Assembly: GCA_023953615.1 (NCBI GenBank)
Contig: JAMLJH010000002.1
Coordinates: 396,592-460,591 of the forward strand
DNA length: 64,000 nt
Origin: Verrucomicrobiia bacterium
Lineage (GTDB): Bacteria > Verrucomicrobiota > Verrucomicrobiia > Limisphaerales > JADLHS01
Direction of reading: 5' to 3'
Of the stretch, positions 19,805 through 54,670 are shown piece by piece. Within the stretch, counting starts at the first letter, position 1; each line of letters starts with the position of its first letter. The notes below the pieces were generated by a model. The model ran no database searches and was not told the origin of the DNA. It worked only from the letters and a program-made list of their open reading frames with translations. A program made the translations under genes and the position numbers.

Positions 19805-20158
19805 TCTGTCCTGTTTCAGGTTTGGAACCGGGTGGCATGATGAGCGGATTCAGCGGGAAGAGCAATCTTCTGTTCGCGGTAAACGGAATAATTTCCTCGG
19901 CATTGATCGTTGTCATCAAGGTCTTGATCAGCGCGCCGCCATCCGGAGCGGGGGATCACGCCACCTACAAACGCGAATGGGCGGGCCGGGCCGAAGCGCA
20001 GAGTTCAGTTATTGTCGAGAACGATTTGAGACGGTTGGCCTTGTGGCCTGGTCCGCGTCTCCCGGGTGGTCACGGTAACGCGCGTTTTCATAAACATCAT
20101 TGGGAGAATCCTGCGGCGTCCGCCTCACGTTTTATGGAGCCTCGGAGGTTAGCCGACT

Positions 20159-23212: not shown

Positions 23213-23585
23213 ATCAAGCCTTTGGATTGAATGATATGCGCTCCGGCAACCGGTCCGGGGCGGGCGCCAAGCTGACGGATGGCGGAATCAATTTATCTGG
23301 CAACGGCTCGATCCAGGCCGCTGCCGGGCAGGTTTCGGTTTTGACGTGCGAGGTCATCATACCGGCTTTCGTTTACCCGTGGCGGTTGTGGCTTGTGCCG
23401 GGAACAGCACACGAACGGGGAAACGACGCAACCTTTATCGCACAGGGTTCAGTTATTGTCGAGAACGGTTTCGGGATTTTGAAAATTACCTGGTCCGAGG
23501 TGAATGAAGCTTATCCCGATGGCGGCTCGGTGGTGTCGGCCCAGCATCGCTACGAACTATCGAGACGGTGGTTTGTCGTGGTGGC

Positions 23586-28508: not shown

Positions 28509-28820
28509 ATGTTCTTGGCCAAAGTCGAAGGCTCGGTGGTCGCCACCAAGAAAGACCGGAACATGTCGGGGCGCAAACTGTTGTTGCTTCGTCCGCAACT
28601 CGTGGATGAAAAAGACCCGACGAAATTTCGCCCCGGCGCGAACACCATCGTGGCCGTGGACGCGCTCGGCGCGGGGTTGGACGAGATGGTGATGTTCACG
28701 CAGGGCAGCAGCGCGCGGCTCGCGCCCGGCATGAAAGACGCCCCGGTGGATGCCGTCATCATCGGCATCGTGGACAGCGTGGACGTGCTGGGGAAACAGA
28801 TTTATAGCGGTAGAACGTGA
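28509..28820 (+). CDS. BMC-P pentameric vertex protein (EutN/CcmL family)
   Basis: MFLAKVEGSVVATKK...AVDALGAG...AVIIGIVDSV. Confidence 0.9.
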   Translation: MFLAKVEGSVVATKKDRNMSGRKLLLLRPQLVDEKDPTKFRPGANTIVAVDALGAGLDEMVMFTQGSSARLAPGMKDAPVDAVIIGIVDSVDVLGKQIYSGRT

Positions 28821-29239
28821 GTAAACAAAACAACAATCAAGTTGTAGGAAACATTGGTCTTTACTACGTGTGCTATCGCTTGTCTCAACGTGGTTGGAAT
28901 GTGATGCCAACTGCTAGAAACGCGCGAGGGATAGACGCGTTGATTTATAGCCAGGATGCAACACGGGTTAAAACTATCCAAGTTAAGGCGCTCTCTAGGA
29001 GAAGTCCGGTGCCTCTCGGTTCCAACCTGGACAATCTTTTCGGAGATTTCATCGTTGTTTGCCAGAGTGTAACGACGAAGAAGCCAGCCTGTTATGTTCT
29101 TACGCCAGAAGAAGTCAGGCGATTAGTGCATAAAGGAGAAAAGGACGGCAAAACCAGCTTTTGGTTGCAGCCAAAGCATTACGAAAAAACTGAGTTTCAT
29201 GAGAACTGGGACAGGATAGGTTCGGGATCCAATGCTTGA
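28817..29239 (+). CDS. PD-(D/E)xK-type nuclease-fold protein (putative)
   Basis: 140 aa with GNIGLYYVCYRLSQRGWNV...ARGIDALI...IQVKA, giving the D...(Q)xK motif order. It is AT-rich, and its GTG start overlaps the BMC-P stop (GTGA). Confidence 0.45.
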   Translation: MSKQNNNQVVGNIGLYYVCYRLSQRGWNVMPTARNARGIDALIYSQDATRVKTIQVKALSRRSPVPLGSNLDNLFGDFIVVCQSVTTKKPACYVLTPEEVRRLVHKGEKDGKTSFWLQPKHYEKTEFHENWDRIGSGSNA

Positions 29240-29248
29240 TCAAGTAAG

Positions 29249-29280
29249 TTTATGAGCACAGCGAGCGAGACTTTGAACCG
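29249..29280 (+). pseudogene. Orphan duplicated 5' end of the aldehyde dehydrogenase gene
   Basis: tttATGagcacagcgagcgagactttgaaccg matches 30091-30122 at 27 of 32 nt (MSTASETLNR versus MSTVNETLIR). Confidence 0.7.
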
Positions 29281-29356: not shown

Positions 29357-29776
29357 TCAAATGTGCTTCGGTGGGGGGTGCCGTGCGCGGAGAATTTCTT
29401 CGTGACGGATGGCTTGGGCCACGTCGCGGTTCAAATTCAAAGCGGCAACGGTGGCGCGTCCAGTCGGACTGATGCCGACCACGCGGACGCCGTCCCAGCG
29501 GAAATGCAATCGCCAAGAATCACGGCGGGGACTGAACAATCTGACTTCATTCCCCGTTTTGGGATCAATGGCTTTCATTCGCGCTCCTTTGCGAAGCGAG
29601 CACGAAACACACGCCAGCGCCAGATTGTTCAGCGTCGTTGCGCCACCAGCATCCGTCGGGATGACGTGGTCAATATGAAAAGTCGCCTCTTGGGAAACCT
29701 GCGAAAGTCCGCAGTACTCGCAACGATTTCCGGCACGCTGGATGGCCTGACGCCGCAGTTGCGCCGGGATGGTCAT
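29357..29776 (-). CDS. HNH endonuclease
   Basis: CEYCG...HIDHVIP...GGATTLNNLALACVSCSLRK motif set. Confidence 0.85.
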   Translation of the reverse strand: MTIPAQLRRQAIQRAGNRCEYCGLSQVSQEATFHIDHVIPTDAGGATTLNNLALACVSCSLRKGARMKAIDPKTGNEVRLFSPRRDSWRLHFRWDGVRVVGISPTGRATVAALNLNRDVAQAIRHEEILRARHPPPKHI

Positions 29777-29780
29777 GTGA

Positions 29781-30005
29781 TCAGTGGCGTCCGTTGCTCA
29801 ATCGTTGCGAACGCAAACGCAACAGGGAAAGCAGGTCAGCCAATTCAACCAACCCCTCAGCCTCCCGCTTTTCGGCGAGTGTCAGGCGATTCCCTTGGTC
29901 TTGCTTGTCCAGCAACGCGTGCAGCCGTTTCTCCACGCCTTTTGGCAGGCGAAACTTTGCCAGATCGCCCGGCATCTCAACTATCAGTTCGATGGCTTGA
30001 GACAT
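29781..30005 (-). CDS. Small helical protein upstream of and co-oriented with the HNH gene
   Basis: 74-aa ORF ending 4 nt before the HNH start. Family not recognised. Confidence 0.5.
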   Translation of the reverse strand: MSQAIELIVEMPGDLAKFRLPKGVEKRLHALLDKQDQGNRLTLAEKREAEGLVELADLLSLLRLRSQRLSNGRH

Positions 30006-30093
30006 ATTTACTTTCCGTTTCTGAGGCCGAATTTAGCAGAAGTGGGTCGGGGTGTCCAAGCTCGGAATTCCCTTCGTTAAAAAGCAACTATTT

Positions 30094-31590
30094 ATGAGCA
30101 CAGTGAATGAAACTTTGATCCGCGACGTGGTGGCGGAAGTGTTGGGACGCATCGGCGGCGCGACTGCCTCCAGCACCACGACGGCGAATCCAGCTCCGGC
30201 CAAAAGTGAATCGCGTAATGTGCGTGCGCCGCAGGTGACCGTGCCGGCGTCGCGCGGAAAATTCGGTGTGTTTGCCACGGCGAACGAGGCGTGCGCGGCG
30301 GCTCAGGAAGCTTTTTTGTTGTTGCGAGAAAAGGGCGTGGCGGCGCGGCGCAAGATCGAGGGAATCGTCAAGACGTTGGCGGAGAAAAACGCCGAGGCTT
30401 GGGGCAAACTCGAGTTGGATGAAACGAAAATTGGTCGGCTCGATCACAAGATTGAGAAGCTCAAAATCATCCGGCTGGTGCCCGGTGTGGATTGGCTGCG
30501 ACCGGAAGCTTTGAGCGGCGATCACGGCATCACCCTGGAGGAATTCACGCCGTTTGGCGTGGTGGGCGCGATTACGCCAAGCACCCATTCCATTCCCACG
30601 TTGAGTGGCAACATTGTCAACATTGTCGCCGCCGGGAATGCGGTGGTGTTCAATCCGCATCCCAGCGCGGCGCGTTGCGCGGCGGCGGCGGTGCGAACTT
30701 ACAACGAAGCGATTTATCGCGAGACCGGCATCGAGAACATCGCGTGTCTGGTGGAGCAACCAACGCTGGAATCCTTCGACGCGCTTTGCAAAAACGAGTA
30801 CACGAAATTGCTGCTGGTTACTGGCGGTCCGGGTGTGGTGAAAGCGGCGATGCAAACCGGCAAGCGCGCCATTTGTGCCGGACCGGGGAATCCGCCGGTG
30901 CTCGTGGATGACACCTGCTGCGCGACTCGCGCGGCGAAAGCGATCATTGCCGGGGCCGCCTTTGACAACAACCTCCTCTGCATTGGCGAGAAGGAGGTTT
31001 TCGTTTTGGACAGCGTGGCGAACAAGTTGATGCAGCGCCTGGCCGAGAACGGCGCGGTGAAGTTGAGCGACGCGCAATTGGAAAAACTGACGCAGGCGGC
31101 GTTCACCTTCAAGCCGGGGCAGGGCGGCGGTTGTTCTCACGCCAGCGTGAACAAGGAATTCATTGGCAAGAATCCTGAAGTGCTGGCTCAAGCGGCCGGA
31201 CTGAATCTGCCGATGGGCACCCAGTTGTTGTTCGCCGAAACGTCCGCCGACCATCCCTTCGTGCAGGAGGAACAGATGATGCCGTTTCTGCCGATTGTGC
31301 GGGTGAAGAGCGTGCGCGAAGGCATCCAACTGGCCGTGCAGGCCGAGCACGGTTATCGCCATACCAGCGTGATTCATTCGCATGACGTGGAGCACATGAC
31401 CGCGATGGCGCGGGCGTTGGACACCACGTTGTTTGTAAAGAACGGTCCTTCACCCGCAGGCCTGGGCCTGGGTGGCGAAGGTTATTTGAGTTACTCCATC
31501 GCCACCCCAACTGGTGAAGGCGTGACCAATCCGCGCACCTTCACGCGCGTCCGGCGATGTGTGATGGTGGACAATCTGAGAATTTATTAA
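30094..31590 (+). CDS. CoA-acylating aldehyde dehydrogenase (PduP/EutE-like)
   Basis: ALDH fold with the catalytic Cys context (NNLLCIGEKE), an N-terminal amphipathic helix (TLIRDVVAEVLGRIGG) and an Ala/Thr/Pro linker resembling an encapsulation peptide. Confidence 0.88.
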   Translation: MSTVNETLIRDVVAEVLGRIGGATASSTTTANPAPAKSESRNVRAPQVTVPASRGKFGVFATANEACAAAQEAFLLLREKGVAARRKIEGIVKTLAEKNAEAWGKLELDETKIGRLDHKIEKLKIIRLVPGVDWLRPEALSGDHGITLEEFTPFGVVGAITPSTHSIPTLSGNIVNIVAAGNAVVFNPHPSAARCAAAAVRTYNEAIYRETGIENIACLVEQPTLESFDALCKNEYTKLLLVTGGPGVVKAAMQTGKRAICAGPGNPPVLVDDTCCATRAAKAIIAGAAFDNNLLCIGEKEVFVLDSVANKLMQRLAENGAVKLSDAQLEKLTQAAFTFKPGQGGGCSHASVNKEFIGKNPEVLAQAAGLNLPMGTQLLFAETSADHPFVQEEQMMPFLPIVRVKSVREGIQLAVQAEHGYRHTSVIHSHDVEHMTAMARALDTTLFVKNGPSPAGLGLGGEGYLSYSIATPTGEGVTNPRTFTRVRRCVMVDNLRIY

Positions 31591-31759
31591 CCACGGATGG
31601 ACACAGATGAACACGGATTAGTACGGGACGCTGGCTTTGGCCCGCTTCAGTGTTCGCGCGTCAACGGCGTTCGAAAATTGAAGCGACCTGAAGGCCGCGC
31701 TCCTGAGCGTTCCGGTTTCATCCGTGTTTATCCGTGTTTATCCGTGTTTATCCGTGGTT
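31589..31759. repeat. MITE-like element with ~30-bp terminal inverted repeats built from 10-nt subrepeats
   Basis: The left arm 31589-31618 matches the reverse complement of 31730-31759 at 26 of 30 nt. The right arm holds about four tandem tccgtgttta units. It fills the gap from the ALDH stop to 8 nt before the next start. Confidence 0.7.
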
Positions 31760-31766
31760 TGATTTT

Positions 31767-32372: not shown

Positions 32373-33431
32373 ATGAAAAATGTCATCAGTTTGAAGGATG
32401 TGGAACGGATGCAACGCGAGGGTCGCAGCCTGAGTAGTTTGCCGGCCGACGCCATTTTAACGCCTTCGGCGCGCGATTTTCTGAACGACCTTCGCTCGGT
32501 CGTGCCTCAGCCCTCCACTCTAGTCAAGTCCGCCGGCGTCGCCGCGGCCAAACCGCTGCCACCGCGTCAACCGATCAATTCCAAGTCGTCGCCCGCCGAG
32601 CTGGAGACGTTTTTCAATTCACCCTACGCGCACAGTCTCAAGGAGCAGATTTGCCAGATGGGGCAGCGCTTGTGGCAGCGCGCTTATGTGGACGGTAACG
32701 GCGGGAACATGGCGATTCGCGTGGGAGAGGACGTGGCAATTTGCACGCCGACGCTGGTGAGCAAAGGCGCGTTGAAGCCGGAAGACATGTGCCTCGTGGA
32801 TTTTGAGGGCCATCAATTGCTCGGCATGAAAAAGCGCACGAGCGAAATTCTCATGCACTTGCAGATGATGAAACGGCAGCCCAAGGCAATCGCCACCTGC
32901 CATTGTCATCCGCCCTACGCGACCGCCTTTGCGGTGGCGAACGTCGCGCCGCCCACCTGCATGTTGCCCGAGTTTGAAGTGTTTTGCTCGGTCGGCGTCG
33001 CGCCCTATCGCACGCCGGGCACCTCGGACATGGGCAAGCTGGTGGCGGATTTGACGGATCAATACAACACGATTTTGATGGCGAATCACGGCGTGGTGAC
33101 CTGGTCGCACAACAATCTCGAAGAAGCCTACTGGCGCATGGAGATTGTGGAAGCGTATTGCCGCACGATTGTGGTGGCCGGGCAATTGGGCCATCCGATC
33201 AACACCTTCACCGGACCGCAAATGAAGGATTTGTTGAACATCAAGGAGAAGCTGGGTTTCGTGGACCCGCGGTTCGAGATGAAGGAATGTGAGTTGTGCG
33301 ACAGTGGCGAATGGCGTCCGGGCGTGACGTGCGCCGTGCCGCGCCCCGAGGCGGCGGGCGCGGGCTTTGATCCGGAAGCGGAAAAGGCGGTGCAGGCCAT
33401 CACGGACCAAATTCTCAAGCAGATGAAATGA
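32373..33431 (+). CDS. Class II aldolase/adducin-family protein (fuculose/rhamnulose-1-phosphate aldolase-like) with terminal extensions
   Basis: The core has GNGGNMAIRV, HCHPPYATAF and MANHGVVTW. It also has a ~90-aa N-terminal extension with a Pro/Ser linker and a C-terminal amphipathic helix (EKAVQAITDQILKQM). Confidence 0.85.
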   Translation: MKNVISLKDVERMQREGRSLSSLPADAILTPSARDFLNDLRSVVPQPSTLVKSAGVAAAKPLPPRQPINSKSSPAELETFFNSPYAHSLKEQICQMGQRLWQRAYVDGNGGNMAIRVGEDVAICTPTLVSKGALKPEDMCLVDFEGHQLLGMKKRTSEILMHLQMMKRQPKAIATCHCHPPYATAFAVANVAPPTCMLPEFEVFCSVGVAPYRTPGTSDMGKLVADLTDQYNTILMANHGVVTWSHNNLEEAYWRMEIVEAYCRTIVVAGQLGHPINTFTGPQMKDLLNIKEKLGFVDPRFEMKECELCDSGEWRPGVTCAVPRPEAAGAGFDPEAEKAVQAITDQILKQMK

Positions 33432-33784
33432 GCAGTTGGGTTTTGCAATTAAGTGCCAGTGTGGGGCGGGCGACTTGGGGGTTGCTGGCCTTGTTACTGG
33501 CAGTTTCCGGTTGCGGATCACTCGTGGCTCGTTCAGAACGCAAAGCCAATCCGGATGGTGATTTTTCCAAAGTATATGGTGGTGTGCAGTATGACTGGCA
33601 ATTTATAGCGCATCCGATCGCCAACAGCCGCGCATTGGGTGCTCCCGCAGCGATGGGGTTTTTAGGAACGATTGAAGGGCTGGTTGATTTGGGGCCATCG
33701 TTGGTTCTGGATACGCTGCTGTTGCCTTTTGACCTGACGTGGAAACCGACGCCGTTGCCAACCGAAGAGGCGTCATCGCACTAA
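33428..33784 (+). CDS. YceK/YidQ-like small lipoprotein
   Basis: Lipobox LLAVSGC and a YGGVQYDW motif. It overlaps the aldolase stop by 4 nt. Confidence 0.5.
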   Translation: MSSWVLQLSASVGRATWGLLALLLAVSGCGSLVARSERKANPDGDFSKVYGGVQYDWQFIAHPIANSRALGAPAAMGFLGTIEGLVDLGPSLVLDTLLLPFDLTWKPTPLPTEEASSH

Positions 33785-33806
33785 TCAGTTGGCTTGTGGT
33801 TTTACA

Positions 33807-33910
33807 ATGAAATCCCTCGATCAAAAACTGGCTGAAATTAAAGCGAATCCCGCTTCGCGCGCGTTCATTCTGGCCGACGCCAAAGACGCCGACATGGCGT
33901 ATGGCGTGCG
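33807..33910 (+). pseudogene. Orphan duplicated 5' end (~104 nt) of the gene at 34732
   Basis: Near-identical to 34732-34838 (MKSLDQKLAEIKANPASRAFILADAKDADMAYGVR versus MTKSLDQKLAEIKANPNSRAFILADAKDADMAYGVR). Homology stops abruptly after ggcgtgcg. Confidence 0.85.
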
Positions 33911-33990
33911 GGTGATTAAGGAGCAGATTTCCAGTCAAACGAAGTATAACGTGCCCTTCAGTTTTTTGACAGGCATGGTATCGTTGTCAC

Positions 33991-34251
33991 GTGAATGCTG
34001 TAACCATTGAAATTCCCGAGGGCTTCAAGAAGAGCTTTGGCGAGACGGACGAGGAAATCCGCCGCAACGCCAAACTCGAACTCGCCATCGTGATGTATCG
34101 CGAGGGCAAGTGGTCCACGGGCAAGGCTGGGAAATTCTGTGGAATGACGCGCATCGCATTCATGGACTTGCTGCGAGATCGCAAAGTTCCGATGCCGTAC
34201 ACAAGAGAGATGTTGGAGCAAGACCTGGCTTATGCCCGCAGTTGTAGCTGA
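33991..34251 (+). CDS. UPF0175-family antitoxin-like protein
   Basis: 86 aa with ...LELAIVMYREGKWSTGKAGKFCGMTRIAFMDLL, the family-typical HTH-like C-terminus. It is paired with a DUF3368 gene. Confidence 0.7.
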   Translation: MNAVTIEIPEGFKKSFGETDEEIRRNAKLELAIVMYREGKWSTGKAGKFCGMTRIAFMDLLRDRKVPMPYTREMLEQDLAYARSCS

Positions 34252-34735
34252 CTCATCTCCGATTGTTTATCTGGCGCGGATTAACCGGCTTGAACTGCTC
34301 CGGCGGCTTTATTCGGAGGTGTTTATTCCGGCGGCCGTGTGGCGTGAAGTGGCGGTCGAAGGTGCGGAGCTTATCGAAGGCCGGTCACTCCGGGCTGCTG
34401 CGACCGCGGGCTGGATTCGGGTGGATAATTCCACAGCGGCGTCCGCGCACCAAAATCCGCTGCTTACGCAACTGGACGATGGCGAGCGGGAAGCCATTGC
34501 GCTGGCGATCAGGCTGGAGGCGCTGCTTATTATTGACGAAGCGGAAGGCCGGGCGGTGGCTCTGAAGCTTAGCGTTAAATTGACCGGAACCTTGGGGGTT
34601 CTTGTTCAGGCCATCCGGCGGGGATTCCTGCCGCGCCTCAAGCCTGAGCTTGACCGCTTGATGGGCGAAACAAATTTCCGTTGCACGGATGAACTGATTG
34701 CGACGGCACTGAAGGATGTTGACGAGAAACCATGA
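34232..34735 (+). CDS. DUF3368-type PIN-like nuclease (toxin-like partner)
   Basis: The VVADSSPIVYLARINRLELLRRLY..VFIPAAVWREV N-terminus is typical of DUF3368. Its stop overlaps the ATG of the downstream gene (ATGA). Confidence 0.7.
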   Translation: MPAVVADSSPIVYLARINRLELLRRLYSEVFIPAAVWREVAVEGAELIEGRSLRAAATAGWIRVDNSTAASAHQNPLLTQLDDGEREAIALAIRLEALLIIDEAEGRAVALKLSVKLTGTLGVLVQAIRRGFLPRLKPELDRLMGETNFRCTDELIATALKDVDEKP

Positions 34736-35982
34736 CCAAATCCCTCGATCAAAAACTGGCTGAAATTAAAGCGAACCCCAATTCGCGCGCGTTCATTCTA
34801 GCCGACGCCAAAGACGCCGACATGGCGTATGGCGTGCGCGCCACCGGTCCGCGCTCCTACTTGGCCCGGCGCGGTGCGCGCCCGGCCCAATTCTCCCCGG
34901 AGGTTTGGTCTCGGGAAGAGTTTGGCTTTCGCAATCTGCCGGAGTTCTTGGACATCATTCGTGAAGTGACGCACCAGGGGTTGGTGGACATCATGTTGAT
35001 GTCGGCCTACGTGAACGAACAACTCACGATCAAGGAAGGCTTGTTTCAAAATTCCCACGTTACGCCTGCCGCTCGCGCGAACGATACCACCGATGTCTGG
35101 GCCGCGCGGCACGGTTGTTACATGGGTGAAGCGTCGCAACCGTTTCGGACGGCGAGCATTGATCACATTCAATGCGGCGAAGTGGAATGTGAGCGGGGTG
35201 CGACTCCCGATTTTCCCGGCGCCAATCTGGGACTGTATTCGATCACTTACGTGAACGATTTGGAACAGGACCGCGAGGCGTTGCTGGCTTACAAGGAATT
35301 TCGCGAGGAGGCGGAGCGCAAGCAGTTCCGGCACTTTTTGGAAGTGTTCGATCCCAACGTGGACAGCGGCATTCCTGCGGAAAACCTGGGCGAGTTCGTC
35401 AACGACAACATCCTGCGCACCCTGGCGGGCGTGCCGGAGGCGGGGCGACCGTTGTTTCTGAAGGTGGTGTATCACGGTCCGCGCGCCATGGAAGAACTTT
35501 GCCAATACGATCCCAACATGGTGGTCGGCATCATGGGAGGCAGCGCGGGCACGACGCATGATGCGTTCAAGTTGATTCATGACGCGCAAAAGCACGGCGC
35601 GCGGGCGGCGTTGTTTGGTCGCAAAATCAACAACGCGGAGCACCAACTGGCGTTTATCGAAATGCTGCGCTTGATCACCGACGGCAAAATCAGTCCCGAG
35701 GAGGCCGTCCGTGCCTATCACGGCGTGCTGCAAGGCAAGGGCATCAAGCCGCAACGCGCGTTGGCGGATGATTTGCAACTAACCGGGCAGTCCATGAATT
35801 ATGCCGGGACGGTGCCCGCGTCGGACGGTCGCAGCGGATCAGCGCGAAGTGAGATGAGTCGTCCTGCAAGTTCGACCGGCACCGCAACCGACTGGCCGCG
35901 ACAGGCCGATGGTTCGCCGGACTTTGCCCGGATGAATTCGCAGCAGCGATTCGCCTACGATCGGGCGCGGTTGCAGCTCTGA
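34732..35982 (+). CDS. Conserved hypothetical protein, possibly a DeoC/LacD/FbaB-like class I aldolase TIM barrel
   Basis: 416 aa. ILADAKDADM, PLFLKVVYHG and GGSAGTTHDAF...GARAALFGRKI resemble the DeoC/LacD family layout. The C-terminal ~70 aa are low-complexity. Assignment is tentative. Confidence 0.35.
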   Translation: MTKSLDQKLAEIKANPNSRAFILADAKDADMAYGVRATGPRSYLARRGARPAQFSPEVWSREEFGFRNLPEFLDIIREVTHQGLVDIMLMSAYVNEQLTIKEGLFQNSHVTPAARANDTTDVWAARHGCYMGEASQPFRTASIDHIQCGEVECERGATPDFPGANLGLYSITYVNDLEQDREALLAYKEFREEAERKQFRHFLEVFDPNVDSGIPAENLGEFVNDNILRTLAGVPEAGRPLFLKVVYHGPRAMEELCQYDPNMVVGIMGGSAGTTHDAFKLIHDAQKHGARAALFGRKINNAEHQLAFIEMLRLITDGKISPEEAVRAYHGVLQGKGIKPQRALADDLQLTGQSMNYAGTVPASDGRSGSARSEMSRPASSTGTATDWPRQADGSPDFARMNSQQRFAYDRARLQL

Positions 35983-35984
35983 GA

Positions 35985-36941
35985 TCAGCGTACGCCCGCC
36001 TCGTCGAGTTGGAGTCGTCCGCGATTTGCATCCAACGTGGCCCGAACGCCGACGGGCAAGGTGGCGTTCATCGCCACGTGACCGAAGGGCAGGCCGGTAA
36101 CGATCGGAATTTTTAACGGCAGCAGGCGTTCGCGGAAAACATCCTCCAAAGTCTGACGATATTCCTTGGCGGTTTGGGCGCGCGGATCCTGACAGTTGGC
36201 GTTGATTCCGATGGCAATACCCGCGACCTGTTGCAACCGCCCGCAATTCAGCAGGTGGGTCAACAGACGATCCCAGCGATAAGGTTCTTCCCCCACGTCT
36301 TCGAGGAAGAGGATGGCGTTTTTGAAGTTCGGTTGCCACGGGGTGCCGATCAGCGTGTTCAGAATGGTGATGTTGCCGCCGATGAGCCGACCGCGGGCCA
36401 TGCCGCGCCGTAGAATTTTCACCGTTTTACCCGGATAGCCGGTGGCGATGTCGTTTTGCGGCGCCGCGGAAGCGAGGGTACGCAAAAAACTTTGCACCGT
36501 GAACGCGGGGAGCCGTTTGAGCGCAAAGTCGGAGTTCAACATTGGCCCGTGGAAGGAGATCAAACCGGCCTTGGATAGAAACGCGCCGTGCAGTGAAGTG
36601 ATGTCGCTGTAGCCGATGAAAATTTTCGGATTGGCCCGGATCAAACGGTAGTTCAGCCGGGGCAGTAATCGCGCGGTACCGTAACCGCCCCGCACGCAGA
36701 TGATCGCGTTCACCTGGCGATCGGTGAACATCCGCATCAAATCATCGGCGCGCTCGCGGTCGGAGCCGGCGAGGAAACCGAGGCGTTTGTGCGCGTTCGG
36801 CGCGAGCTTGGTTCGGTAGCCGAGTTTTTCGAGCACGGCAATGGCGCGGTCCACATTTTTCGGATCGGGCGGCGCGCTGGCGGGAGCGACGATGCCCAAG
36901 GTGTCACCGGGATTCAGGCGAGGCGGAAAGACAAGTTTCAT
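35985..36941 (-). CDS. ldcA: LD-carboxypeptidase (peptidase S66, LdcA/MccF-like)
   Basis: LNPGDTLGIVAPAS, GYSDITSLH and FGH motifs. The ATG at 36941 lies inside the longer ORF that runs to 36998. Confidence 0.8.
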   Translation of the reverse strand: MKLVFPPRLNPGDTLGIVAPASAPPDPKNVDRAIAVLEKLGYRTKLAPNAHKRLGFLAGSDRERADDLMRMFTDRQVNAIICVRGGYGTARLLPRLNYRLIRANPKIFIGYSDITSLHGAFLSKAGLISFHGPMLNSDFALKRLPAFTVQSFLRTLASAAPQNDIATGYPGKTVKILRRGMARGRLIGGNITILNTLIGTPWQPNFKNAILFLEDVGEEPYRWDRLLTHLLNCGRLQQVAGIAIGINANCQDPRAQTAKEYRQTLEDVFRERLLPLKIPIVTGLPFGHVAMNATLPVGVRATLDANRGRLQLDEAGVR

Positions 36942-48010: not shown

Positions 48011-48175
48011 TTTCCGCCTAAAGGCGGGACTACGAACAACACGATACGAGCGACTCAATACGAACGATTCAAAGCGGCGGGGTAGATGAGTTGTCGTCTT
48101 TGACTTGTGGAACTCCGCCTGAAGGCGGAACTACAAGCGACGTGATACGAACGACTCAATACAAACGTTTTGGAG
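48011..48175. repeat. Two copies of a ~60-nt hairpin-containing intergenic repeat
   Basis: 48011-48073 and 48111-48175 share ccgcct[a/g]aaggcgg[g/a]actac[g/a]a...gatacga[g/a]cgactcaatac[g/a]aacg. They lie between convergent genes. Confidence 0.75.
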
Positions 48176-48186
48176 TGGTGGTGAGT

Positions 48187-53780: not shown

Positions 53781-54603
53781 TACCCGTCGCTACAAACTTC
53801 AATGAAACGCGGTCATGGGTTGGGGAGCGCACCCGTCTCGCGTCGAACACCGGATGAAGCGGATTAGCCCAAGCTGGTGCGAACACCGGATGATTTGGAT
53901 TGATCCAATCTGGTGCGGTTTCTGTCGGGCGAGACGCCCGCCAGCACACGCGAGACGCGTATGCTCCCCAGTTGCCGTTGCACGATCGCGACCGCGAAAT
54001 ACGCCAACCACGCGAAAACTGGGACGGGAACAATGGCTTTCCCGGTTGCCATTTCCTTTCGCGTGGTTCGCGGTTCATCCGGTGGTTGTCAGTCGTGGAG
54101 TCGGAGTGGCTAGGGTGACGACTCTGGCGACGACAATAGATTCGCACCTTCTGACCACAAGCTGAACTCTCGTGGTGACCAAATGCTACCCGTTGCTACG
54201 AACTTTAAGAAAACGAGGTCATGGGTTGGGGAGCGCACCCGTCTCGGGTGCAGGTTCGACGCGTCCCGCGTCGAACACCAGATGAAGCGGATTAGCTGCA
54301 AGCTGGTGTGATTCGATTGGAGTTTGGGTGGAACGGGCCACTGGCCCGTTCTGTCGGGCTACCAGCCCGGCAGTCGAACGCAAAGAGTGCGAACTCAATG
54401 GGGTGCGATCTCCGTGTACTCGGCTGGGCGGCAGGTTGCCACCCAGAACGGCCAAGTTGGCCGTTCCACCAGGACCAACTGCATCGTTCCGGCTAAGTCG
54501 GTGTGGTTTCTGTCGGGCGAGTCGCCCGCCAGCACACGCGAGGACGCGTATGCTCCCCAGTTGCCGTTGCACGAGCACCCCCGCCAAATACGCCAGCCAC
54601 ATG
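53781..54603. repeat. Non-coding region built from two ~100-nt modules, each present twice, plus short GC hairpins
   Basis: Module X is at 53781-53879 and 54187-54308, with a 21-nt indel. Module Y is at 53912-54012 and 54499-54603. The hairpin cores are gggcgagacgccc, gggcgagtcgccc, gggccactggccc, gggctaccagccc and ggccaagttggcc. Confidence 0.8.
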
Positions 54604-54670
54604 AAATCTCGGGCAGGAACGGCTTTGAGGTCAGACTGTCCGATTGACGGCAGGAGGCTGCTTGGTCAGG

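Follow-up and report, generated by a model that had tools for sequence, protein, structure and literature searches.

How does a toxin-antitoxin (TA) gene pair come to lie inside a conserved operon with the beginning of the next gene repeated on either side of it? The question is raised by a 64,000-nucleotide stretch of DNA from a Verrucomicrobiia bacterium (assembly GCA_023953615.1, contig JAMLJH010000002.1, positions 396,592 to 460,591), here called the window, which contains a microcompartment operon of the Planctomycetes/Verrucomicrobia type. The operon ends in g416 (34732-35982; features are on the + strand unless stated otherwise), a conserved gene for a 416-aa protein. Immediately upstream of g416 lie two small genes that code for a UPF0175 antitoxin-like and a PIN-like toxin protein, and ahead of them the start of g416 is found a second time. 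How TA pairs without mobility genes spread and persist in chromosomes is poorly documented at base-pair resolution. A sequence-only reading of this DNA had proposed that the pair came in as a cassette bracketed by a duplication of its target. Our analysis makes it rather likely that the repeat is instead a recombination scar of the homology-facilitated illegitimate recombination (HFIR) type, joining two alternative versions of the operon into a stacked recombinant, and that the TA pair did not transpose. The locus is informative but essentially ordinary, a scar around a module of known type; its one surprising element is a break point in g416 that recurs in other lineages.

The repeat is found in independent sequences

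Comparison of the window with itself reveals a direct repeat of 101 nt (33810-33910 and 34738-34838) with 4 mismatches (96% identity), which cannot have arisen by chance within 64 kb. When the start codons are included, copy 1 spans 33807-33910 and copy 2 spans 34732-34838, the latter having an extra ACC codon (ATGACC as opposed to ATG). The near-perfect repeat had been described in the sequence-only reading, and every difference listed there is indeed found: the acc codon, aatcccgcttcg versus aaccccaattcg, and ctgg versus ctag. The same is true of the abrupt end of homology after GGCGTGCG. Copy 1 consists of the first 34.7 codons of g416; it begins ATGAAATCC, 22 nt 3' of a lipoprotein stop codon, and is cut after GGCGTGCG. 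Although truncated, it occupies the native context, as had been claimed: the TA-free alleles L178 and L090 have the same upstream context, and in L178 and L179, which belong to the window's own species, the lipoprotein gene is followed by a g416 starting ATGAAATCC. Copy 2 is the 5' end of the intact g416. Comparison with TA-bearing and TA-free alleles shows that it begins ATGACC and is of the native lineage from nt 7. From the ATG of copy 1 a read-through open reading frame (ORF) of 67 aa (33807-34010; NCBI hypothetical protein P0244) runs through the rest of the copy and the DNA that follows it, ending 17 nt inside the antitoxin gene; if the TTG at 33789 is used, it is 73 aa long.

Metagenome assembly carries a general risk of creating such structures, and many short contigs do break at the repeat; nothing else speaks for an artefact. 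At least six separate sequencing runs yielded Logan contigs that match the window at 100% identity. Two of these contigs, L086 (32868-34574) and L089 (33683-34680), cover the lipoprotein gene, copy 1 and the cargo, and a third, L088 (33810-34767), includes copy 1 and the entire cargo and reaches into copy 2. Others stop at 33839 or 33910, where a k=31 graph would be expected to branch on reaching a repeat. The same repeat structure is present in a second genome, L091 (GCA_039806955.1), which is 92.7% identical to the window over 12 kb. With three independent contigs across the junctions at 100% identity, this second genome, and four single-nucleotide differences that distinguish the copies, an error of assembly or binning has virtually no chance of being the explanation, and the artefact that was to be checked by resequencing is not borne out by these independent sequences.

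Two versions of the operon exist among relatives

Eighty genome loci with a g416 homolog (of more than 590 found in the genome collection) were fetched, and metagenome loci were obtained by a scan with a PIN profile. The window's relatives are Pedosphaera/Limisphaerales-like. Two versions of the interval between a class II aldolase gene and g416 are pertinent here. Version A has the order aldolase-lipoprotein-g416; version B has the order aldolase-UPF0175-PIN-g416, and in it the stop codon of PIN overlaps the start of g416. Among the 80 genome loci, the aldolase gene immediately adjoins g416 in about 26, an LDH/MDH-like gene lies in between in 28, other genes do so in a few, and the UPF0175-PIN pair is immediately upstream of g416 in 6.

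Version B occurs in more than 20 related Verrucomicrobia lineages, where the pair lies directly upstream of g416, usually with the ATGA overlap, and there is no duplication (L003, L011, L013, L042, L079, L094/L098, L096, L097, L099-L101 and L107-L113 are of this kind). The closest PIN homologs (73-80% identity) show the order aldolase, 37-44 nt, UPF0175, PIN, ATGA, g416. All PIN homologs of about 44% identity or more for which downstream sequence is available are found directly upstream of g416 (0-40 nt, often with ATGA); weaker ones in the metagenome scan have other contexts. The notion that the duplication is intrinsic to the presence of the pair at this site is contradicted by most TA-bearing relatives, which have the pair and no duplicated segment, an outcome that the sequence-only reading had itself named as a refutation. 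The ATGA in which the PIN stop and the g416 start overlap (34732-34735) is real. It had been attributed to the duplication event, an origin that does not hold, the overlap being standard in L013, L042b, L094/L098, L096 and L097.

Version A is found in the window's own species: L178 (a 24.6-kb contig) and L179, both 98% identical to the window, lack the pair as well as the repeat, and their g416 product has 415 aa and starts MKS. L092 (g416 89% identical at the aa level) is likewise TA-free and has a remnant of the lipoprotein ORF. The g416 starts in TA-bearing relatives are all ATGAC(N)AAATCC or equivalent, and those of TA-free alleles are all ATGAAATCC. Since copy 1 has the start of version A and copy 2 the ATGACC of version B, the window reads as A joined to B.

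These starts also bear on another possible history. In a TA-bearing ancestor, the aldolase tail could have recombined unequally with g416 nt ~100 to give a tandem arrangement, TA-g416'-tail-TA-g416 (g416' being the truncated gene), with the first TA pair later replaced by the lipoprotein gene. Tandem duplications at short homologies are common in bacteria, and this course of events would yield the observed junction along with two initially identical copies. It demands an extra, precise replacement, however, and it sits poorly with the TA-free start (ATGAAATCC) of copy 1 and with an upstream context like that of TA-free L178 and L092; in addition, L091 and L092 retain remnants of the lipoprotein gene, a sign that this clade has had the lipoprotein version for a long time. 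Among about 100 loci examined, none with two tandem TA copies separated by g416'-tail was seen. We consider this history very improbable.

Horizontal transfer of the pair was also considered from the identities of toxin and host genes. The discordance is mild (L101: g416 core 85%, PIN 55%; L096/L099: 84% and 72-73%), and no strong claim is made.

As a separate observation, two TA modules are stacked in the same operon interval in L105 (1973-2564), which has a PemK/MazF pair and a UPF0175-PIN pair, and in L042 (3462-4194 and 5253-6000), which has two UPF0175-PIN pairs with an LDH-like gene between them.

The left junction contains the end of an aldolase gene

The 80 nt that separate copy 1 from the antitoxin start are colinear with the last ~12-14 aldolase codons, the stop codon and the spacer of version B. 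Alignment to the aldolase ends of TA-bearing relatives identifies 33911-33947 (T2) as a decayed remnant of the last ~12 aldolase codons, in frame with copy 1 and with the former stop now TAT. Positions 33948-33990 are the spacer of the TA-bearing version, colinear with that of L097. Local alignment of the 80-nt leader to L097 gives a score of 28 (z=6.5), which 0 of 1000 shuffles reach. The in-frame fusion reads ...YGVR|VIKEQISSQTK-Y against ...AVQAITEQILARMK-stop, the T2 peptide VIKEQISSQTK-Y corresponding to the aldolase end AITEQILARMK-stop. The aldolase gene of the window keeps its own 3' tail (T1, ...AVQAITDQILKQMK*), the intact counterpart of the remnant. At the left joint, GGCGTGCG|GGTGATT in the window stands against GC(C/G)GTGCAGGCGAT in the aldolase, and GTGC/CGTGC is common to both (aldolase GC(C/G)GTGCAGG). 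Because these 80 nt are an aldolase tail followed by a version-B spacer, the bracket is a junction between two operon versions, and the idea of a free cassette fails. The layout is aldolase-lipoprotein-g416(1-104) | aldolase tail-spacer-TA-g416.

This anatomy agrees with HFIR in two respects. One boundary lies at a short GC-rich microhomology (left) and the other is homologous (right, within the g416 start); and both parental arrangements are present in relatives, A in L178, L179 and L092, B in L094/L098, L096, L097, L099-L101 and others. The ORF list and the Pfam matches show only the two TA genes in the cargo, and no transposase, integrase or other recombinase in or beside it. No terminal inverted repeats were found at the cargo ends. 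Insertion of an insertion sequence or transposon with a target-site duplication was rejected on these grounds, as such duplications are short (2-15 bp) and this one has 101 nt. An integrase-mediated element with att duplication was rejected as well: there is no recombinase, both copies are of the native lineage, and the inner junction is a fusion of gene to gene.

The UPF0175-PIN pair looks intact

The antitoxin-like gene (33991-34251, GTG start) matches UPF0175 (COG2886) with E=1.3e-19 and 70.1 bits against a cutoff of 27.9, and the PIN-like toxin gene (34232-34735) matches DUF3368 (COG2405) with E=2.2e-12 and 47.1 bits against a cutoff of 27.3. Pfam thus confirms the earlier description of the ~820-nt cargo as one antitoxin-like and one PIN-like gene. 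The genes are co-directional, antitoxin first, with a 20-nt overlap, a layout shared by more than 20 relatives. Makarova et al. are said to have noted in 2009 that UPF0175 occurs only beside COG2405. COG2405/DUF3368 proteins are catalogued as potential toxins of TA systems, with UPF0175 exclusively in the genomic context of COG2405; the active site is incomplete in part of the COG2405 family, and RNase activity is what is expected of PIN toxins of this class (PMC5499597). The antitoxin is 98% identical at the aa level to that of L091 and 88% to that of L098, with a dN/dS of 0.07 against L091. In the PIN protein, D7 is nearly invariant and E85 and D102 are invariant among 30 homologs, and the profile match to PDB 2mdt is weak (E=0.0046). 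With the low antitoxin dN/dS and the conserved D7, E85 and D102, the pair looks intact; toxin activity of the PIN protein is what its sequence leads us to infer. By analogy with the catalogued families, the pair is probably a resident, selfish and addictive type II module of the COG2886/COG2405 (VapBC-like) kind.

A side observation concerns the rate of change in the PIN gene. Comparison of 34232-34735 with L091 (9501-10004) gives 8 non-synonymous and 4 synonymous differences, hence a dN/dS of 0.73 from only 12 differences, and neighbouring genes have values of 0.05-0.11. Relaxed constraint or a very recent common origin could account for the high value, and the counts are small.

How might the pair be expressed? 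A -10-like motif of the form TG-n-TAnnnT (TGGTATCGT, 33976-33984) lies 7 nt before the antitoxin start, and inspection of related loci by eye showed comparable motifs in about 15 of them, 7-12 nt ahead of the antitoxin gene, which suggests that the pair has a promoter of its own. A consensus promoter and terminator scan of 33300-35100 gave nothing informative. In all three lineages with a duplication the remnant ORF ends at or near the antitoxin start: in an ATGA overlap in L102, 27 nt before it in L105 and 17 nt inside the gene in the window. The PIN/g416 overlap, for its part, is found in many lineages. Taken together, the motif, the remnant-ORF ends and the overlap suggest that translation is linked along the operon. 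The pair would then be read with the operon and be positioned for translational coupling to g416.

A proposed origin and the evidence for and against it

We propose that versions A and B of the aldolase-to-g416 junction were combined by a single illegitimate join. Codon 35 of g416 on a version-A molecule would have been linked, in frame, to the last ~12-14 aldolase codons of a version-B molecule, guided by the short GTGC/CGTGC microhomology, and the remainder of the exchange would have been ordinary homologous recombination, hence the assignment to the HFIR type. A product that retained both the lipoprotein gene and the TA pair would necessarily carry the first 104 nt of g416 twice. Thereafter, recombination between the repeat copies could delete the pair cleanly and shuffle variant sites, and the whole stacked allele could move among related lineages by homologous recombination. 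Addiction, invoked here as an analogy and not as a result, might be the reason why stacked recombinants survive, and would explain why those that regain the upstream gene keep the pair and do not replace it. The direction and the number of the steps are what we infer from the present-day sequences.

Several observations weigh against this proposal. No conspecific version-B allele was found among the loci collected, which leaves the exact parents missing. Had the version-B parent been divergent, copy 2 should look foreign; instead, from nt 7 it is native and unlike L097/L098 (~78-80% nt identity in g416). Its haplotype (C..AA..A) matches TA-free L179, that of copy 1 matches L178, and a sliding-window comparison of identity to L092 with identity to L094/L096/L097 shows no clear foreign tract at the g416 5' end, with only a weak dip in the first 90 nt. 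A native copy 2 requires a two-step history, later gene conversion or a true target duplication. A version-B parent already in a conspecific background (two steps) would account for it; so would later homogenisation of the copies, or an event that truly duplicated its target. The aldolase remnant, moreover, is at best ~58-67% identical to any present aldolase tail. In no lineage is the GTGC patch the best microhomology between aldolase tail and g416, and an aldolase-tail origin of the leaders in L102 and L105 is not statistically demonstrable.

The remaining counter-evidence is the recurrence of the break point, which random illegitimate recombination does not predict. That the event might recur had been suggested by the sequence-only reading, and it does: L102 and L105/L106 carry independent 5' fragments of g416 upstream of their own UPF0175-PIN pairs. 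The L102 fragment covers residues 3-36, is 80% identical (nt) to the full copy of that locus and follows a gene designated X. The L105/L106 fragment covers residues 1-37 at ~86-88% nt identity and follows an LDH-like gene and a PemK/MazF pair (Pfam E=1.4e-28). Both end within ~4 nt of the break point in the window. A search with the 67-aa remnant ORF found further short g416 remnants on long contigs that end at codons 32, 38, 39 and 40, along with three outliers, possibly frameshifted genes; as the output of this search is limited to ORFs of ~45-118 aa, there is a bias in the break points that can be detected. The break point, itself a GC-rich near-palindrome, lies where the most conserved nucleotide block of g416 ends on its downstream side. 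It was not chosen as the best available microhomology, longer matches being present elsewhere in every lineage. Nor could a hairpin be retained as the cause of the clustering: the one predicted at the break point has z=-2.45 in the window and is mostly not significant in relatives.

The same data can be read as targeted insertion with a true target duplication of ~100 nt. A staggered or site-preferring break, or a replication stall with template switching onto TA-bearing DNA, at g416 nt ~96-120 followed by return at the g416 start would copy the module in, in a homing-like manner, while the native 5' end is duplicated, and this would recur in different lineages. It would fit the native character of both copies, only the ATGACC of copy 2 being of the TA-bearing type; the fragment ends at codons ~35-36 behind different upstream genes (lipoprotein gene, PemK/MazF pair, gene X); the remnant ORFs ending at codons 32-40; and the position of the site in a near-palindrome, at the foot of the hairpin predicted in the window. 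The break points scatter over ~25 nt, however, and are not exact; the remnant search is biased by its size limits and the hairpin is inconsistent in relatives; most TA-bearing loci have no duplication. A nuclease would, besides, go on cutting a target left intact in copy 2, and PIN toxins of this class are expected to act on RNA (PMC5499597). We hold such targeting to be unlikely.

Alternatively, all duplicated loci might go back to one old event, the unit of copy 1, junction, TA pair and copy 2 having inserted upstream of any g416 by double crossover at the homology on both sides. Nearly the same break point in three lineages with different upstream genes would be explained, and spread of this kind does happen, the window and L091 sharing the stacked allele through a recent recombination tract. 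Yet the antitoxin+toxin tree disperses the duplicated loci among those without a duplication, giving each a non-duplicated sister (L101 for L102, L097/L098 for the window), and their PIN proteins are only 50-55% identical to one another. Comparison of the window, L102 and L105 leaders revealed no significant similarity. Those of L102 and L105 were also compared with aldolase and LDH tails, again without significance, and only the promoter-proximal part of the L102 leader resembles another locus (L111, p=0.006). A single origin is therefore quite improbable, and the joining of two operon versions by HFIR remains our preferred reading.

One could envision, as a long shot, a more general role for the break point. 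In this scenario g416 nt 96-120 would be a hot spot that repeatedly stacks selfish modules (UPF0175-PIN, PemK/MazF and others), each leaving a remnant of ~35 codons, and a TA pair lying between two gene starts would be a portable cassette with built-in homology arms, able to enter the operons of relatives, cross species boundaries and excise cleanly. If true, this would be a route of mobility for TA modules that needs no transposase or integrase.

Apparent loss of the pair, exchange between copies and spread

Contig L090 consists of window positions 33416-33910 joined to 34839-36410, with 33911-34838 removed and 100% identity on both sides. It represents either a clean, repeat-mediated loss of the pair or, less likely, a chimeric unitig built through the 45 identical bases at the repeat end. 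Across the four copies that the window and L091 contain, the variant sites are arranged as a mosaic, and copy 2 of L091 is 100% identical to copy 1 of the window, which supports later exchange between copies. The window and L091 diverge by ~2% from ~32850 to ~34770 and by 6-8% on both flanks. Between them, dS is 0.03 for PIN, 0.14 for the antitoxin, 0.13 for the aldolase, and 0.2-0.33 for the aldehyde dehydrogenase, g416, S66 peptidase and kinase genes. The pair is missing from L178 and L179, although both are nearer to the window than L091. From this and the low-divergence tract, the stacked allele was apparently either exchanged by homologous recombination across a boundary of ~7% divergence (a species boundary) or lost in the conspecific lineages.

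Other variable junctions and the operon context

A parallel had been drawn with an HNH insertion 4 kb upstream. There, an HNH endonuclease gene (29357-29776) and a 74-aa partner gene (29781-30005) lie on the - strand (29357-30005 together; Pfam HNH E=1.3e-12), and tblastn places the pair at the same site in L002 and L013. The order is shell gene, 140-aa gene, a 32-nt 5'-end fragment of the aldehyde dehydrogenase gene (29249-29280, a direct repeat 84% identical to 30091-30122), HNH pair and full aldehyde dehydrogenase gene. The form is the same as that of the TA locus (gene, 5' fragment, module, full gene), and no remnant of the upstream-gene (BMC-P) tail was found at the insertion. In the conspecific L178 the HNH pair is present, the 140-aa gene and the fragment are absent, and a Bro-N-like ORF is there instead. 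The parallel is plausible and weaker than the TA case. The earlier interpretation as a whole therefore stands for the anatomy and the recurrence, and for the HNH insertion in form only; the free cassette, the intrinsic duplication and the event-made ATGA do not survive.

The junction between shell and aldehyde dehydrogenase genes holds a different small gene in each close relative: the 140-aa gene in the window (28817-29239, no family match, starting in a GTGA overlap with the shell gene stop), the Bro-N-like ORF in L178 (305-550) and an unrelated ORF of ~150 aa in L091 (5213-5665). Another variable junction follows the aldehyde dehydrogenase gene: ahead of the next shell gene, the window has inverted and tandem TCCGTGTTTA-type repeats (31588-31760) and L178 and L179 have a 121-aa 23S_rRNA_IVP/bAvd-like gene (Pfam E=8.3e-37). 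Upstream of the operon region, a 32-nt, apparently non-coding sequence (GCRCAGRGTTCAGTTATTGTCGAGAACGRTTT) occurs at 19996-20027 and 23440-23471, 3.4 kb apart and 91% identical; it may be a shared regulatory site. Families of direct repeats of 36-78 nt (78-95% identical, spaced by 100-590 nt) are found at 53781-54620 and 48013-48181.

The microcompartment operon begins with a DeoR regulator, a PduL-type phosphotransacylase, shell proteins, acetate kinase, aldehyde dehydrogenase and more shell proteins, and ends with the class II aldolase, the DUF1375 lipoprotein, the repeat-bracketed cargo and g416. The aldolase gene (32373-33431; Pfam Aldolase_II E=4.8e-40) is kept upstream of g416 in about 60 related loci. 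The DUF1375/YceK-like lipoprotein gene (33428-33784; Pfam DUF1375 E=4.7e-7; NCBIfam YceK/YidQ) is the upstream gene of the TA-free version; its start overlaps the aldolase stop (ATGA), it directly precedes g416 in L178 and L179, and it has an internal deletion in L091 and persists as a remnant ORF in L092. A cluster listing gives the protein encoded by g416 in NCBI as P0241, although an exact look-up of the protein returned nothing; its only name is hypothetical protein, and the Pfam scan of the window proteins matched it to no family. Homolog searches show the gene to be very widespread, with thousands of homologs, always at the end of this operon, and the C-terminal third of its product alone weakly resembles DhnA/LsrF-type class I aldolases (E~1e-4). 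We also observed that the aldolase tail (ACGGACCAAATCCTCG in L099, GACCAAAT at 33400-33415 in the window) closely matches the TA-bearing g416 start (ATGACCAAATCCCTCG), with 8-10 nt exact, and the aldolase 3' ends of L096 resemble this start as in L099. The match could be a coincidence or a trace of the origin of that start.

Comparison with known systems

The locus supplies both parental arrangements, a stacked product that can be read to the base, a TA-free allele (L090) that resembles a clean excision, and evidence of movement between lineages. It suggests, by analogy with what has been proposed for type VI secretion system (T6SS) immunity arrays, that addiction can turn allele replacement into stacking, and it suggests that a module can use a duplicated gene start as its homology arms. 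A dedicated TA lineage joined to the conserved g416 also proves to reside in a microcompartment operon that is widespread among Verrucomicrobia, a point of relevance to anyone expressing or modelling this operon.

The pair resembles other COG2886/COG2405 TA modules in its two small, overlapping, co-directional genes with the antitoxin first and both Pfam families above cutoff. It is unlike them in that the sublineage of the window is bound to one position in a microcompartment operon and joined by ATGA to the downstream gene. We know of no member of the COG2886/COG2405 group that has been tested experimentally.

With HFIR, as summarised in passages of PMC5361080 and PMC3240628 that cite the original studies (de Vries & Wackernagel 2002; Prudhomme et al. 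2002; Meier & Wackernagel 2003), the locus shares one homologous side, another side joined at a few bases of GC-rich microhomology, and the gain of non-homologous genes beside a conserved anchor. It departs from the classical cases in being deduced from sequence comparison, in having a product with a 101-nt duplication of the 5' end of the anchor gene, and in a break point shared with other lineages, a recurrence not predicted by classical HFIR. HFIR-type displacement with retention of the old module has been proposed for T6SS effector-immunity arrays and Rhs orphans (PMC5361080). In such T6SS, Rhs and contact-dependent inhibition (CDI) orphan arrays, formed by sequential displacement (PMC5361080), a new module is likewise attached to a conserved segment, the old one is kept beside a short leftover of that segment, and its retention is put down to what the loss of a protective gene would cost. 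The window would mirror this arrangement, the conserved segment being supplied by the downstream gene with its 5' end, and the window's type of module is a cytoplasmic TA pair or an unrelated small gene, with no secretion system.

Integrative elements that use att sites in tRNA or tmRNA genes also leave direct repeats of a gene end on both sides of the inserted DNA and restore the intact gene. In contrast to them, the window has no integrase, its ~100-nt repeat is native on both sides and not borne by the element, and its inner junction is fused to the tail of another gene. Free-standing homing endonuclease genes (intronless homing) offer the last comparison: several lineages have a selfish module at the same position next to a conserved gene, and the HNH pair 4 kb upstream recalls them. 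Unlike the sites of such genes, most occupied g416 sites show no duplication, and cleavage of DNA by the PIN protein forms no part of the evidence.

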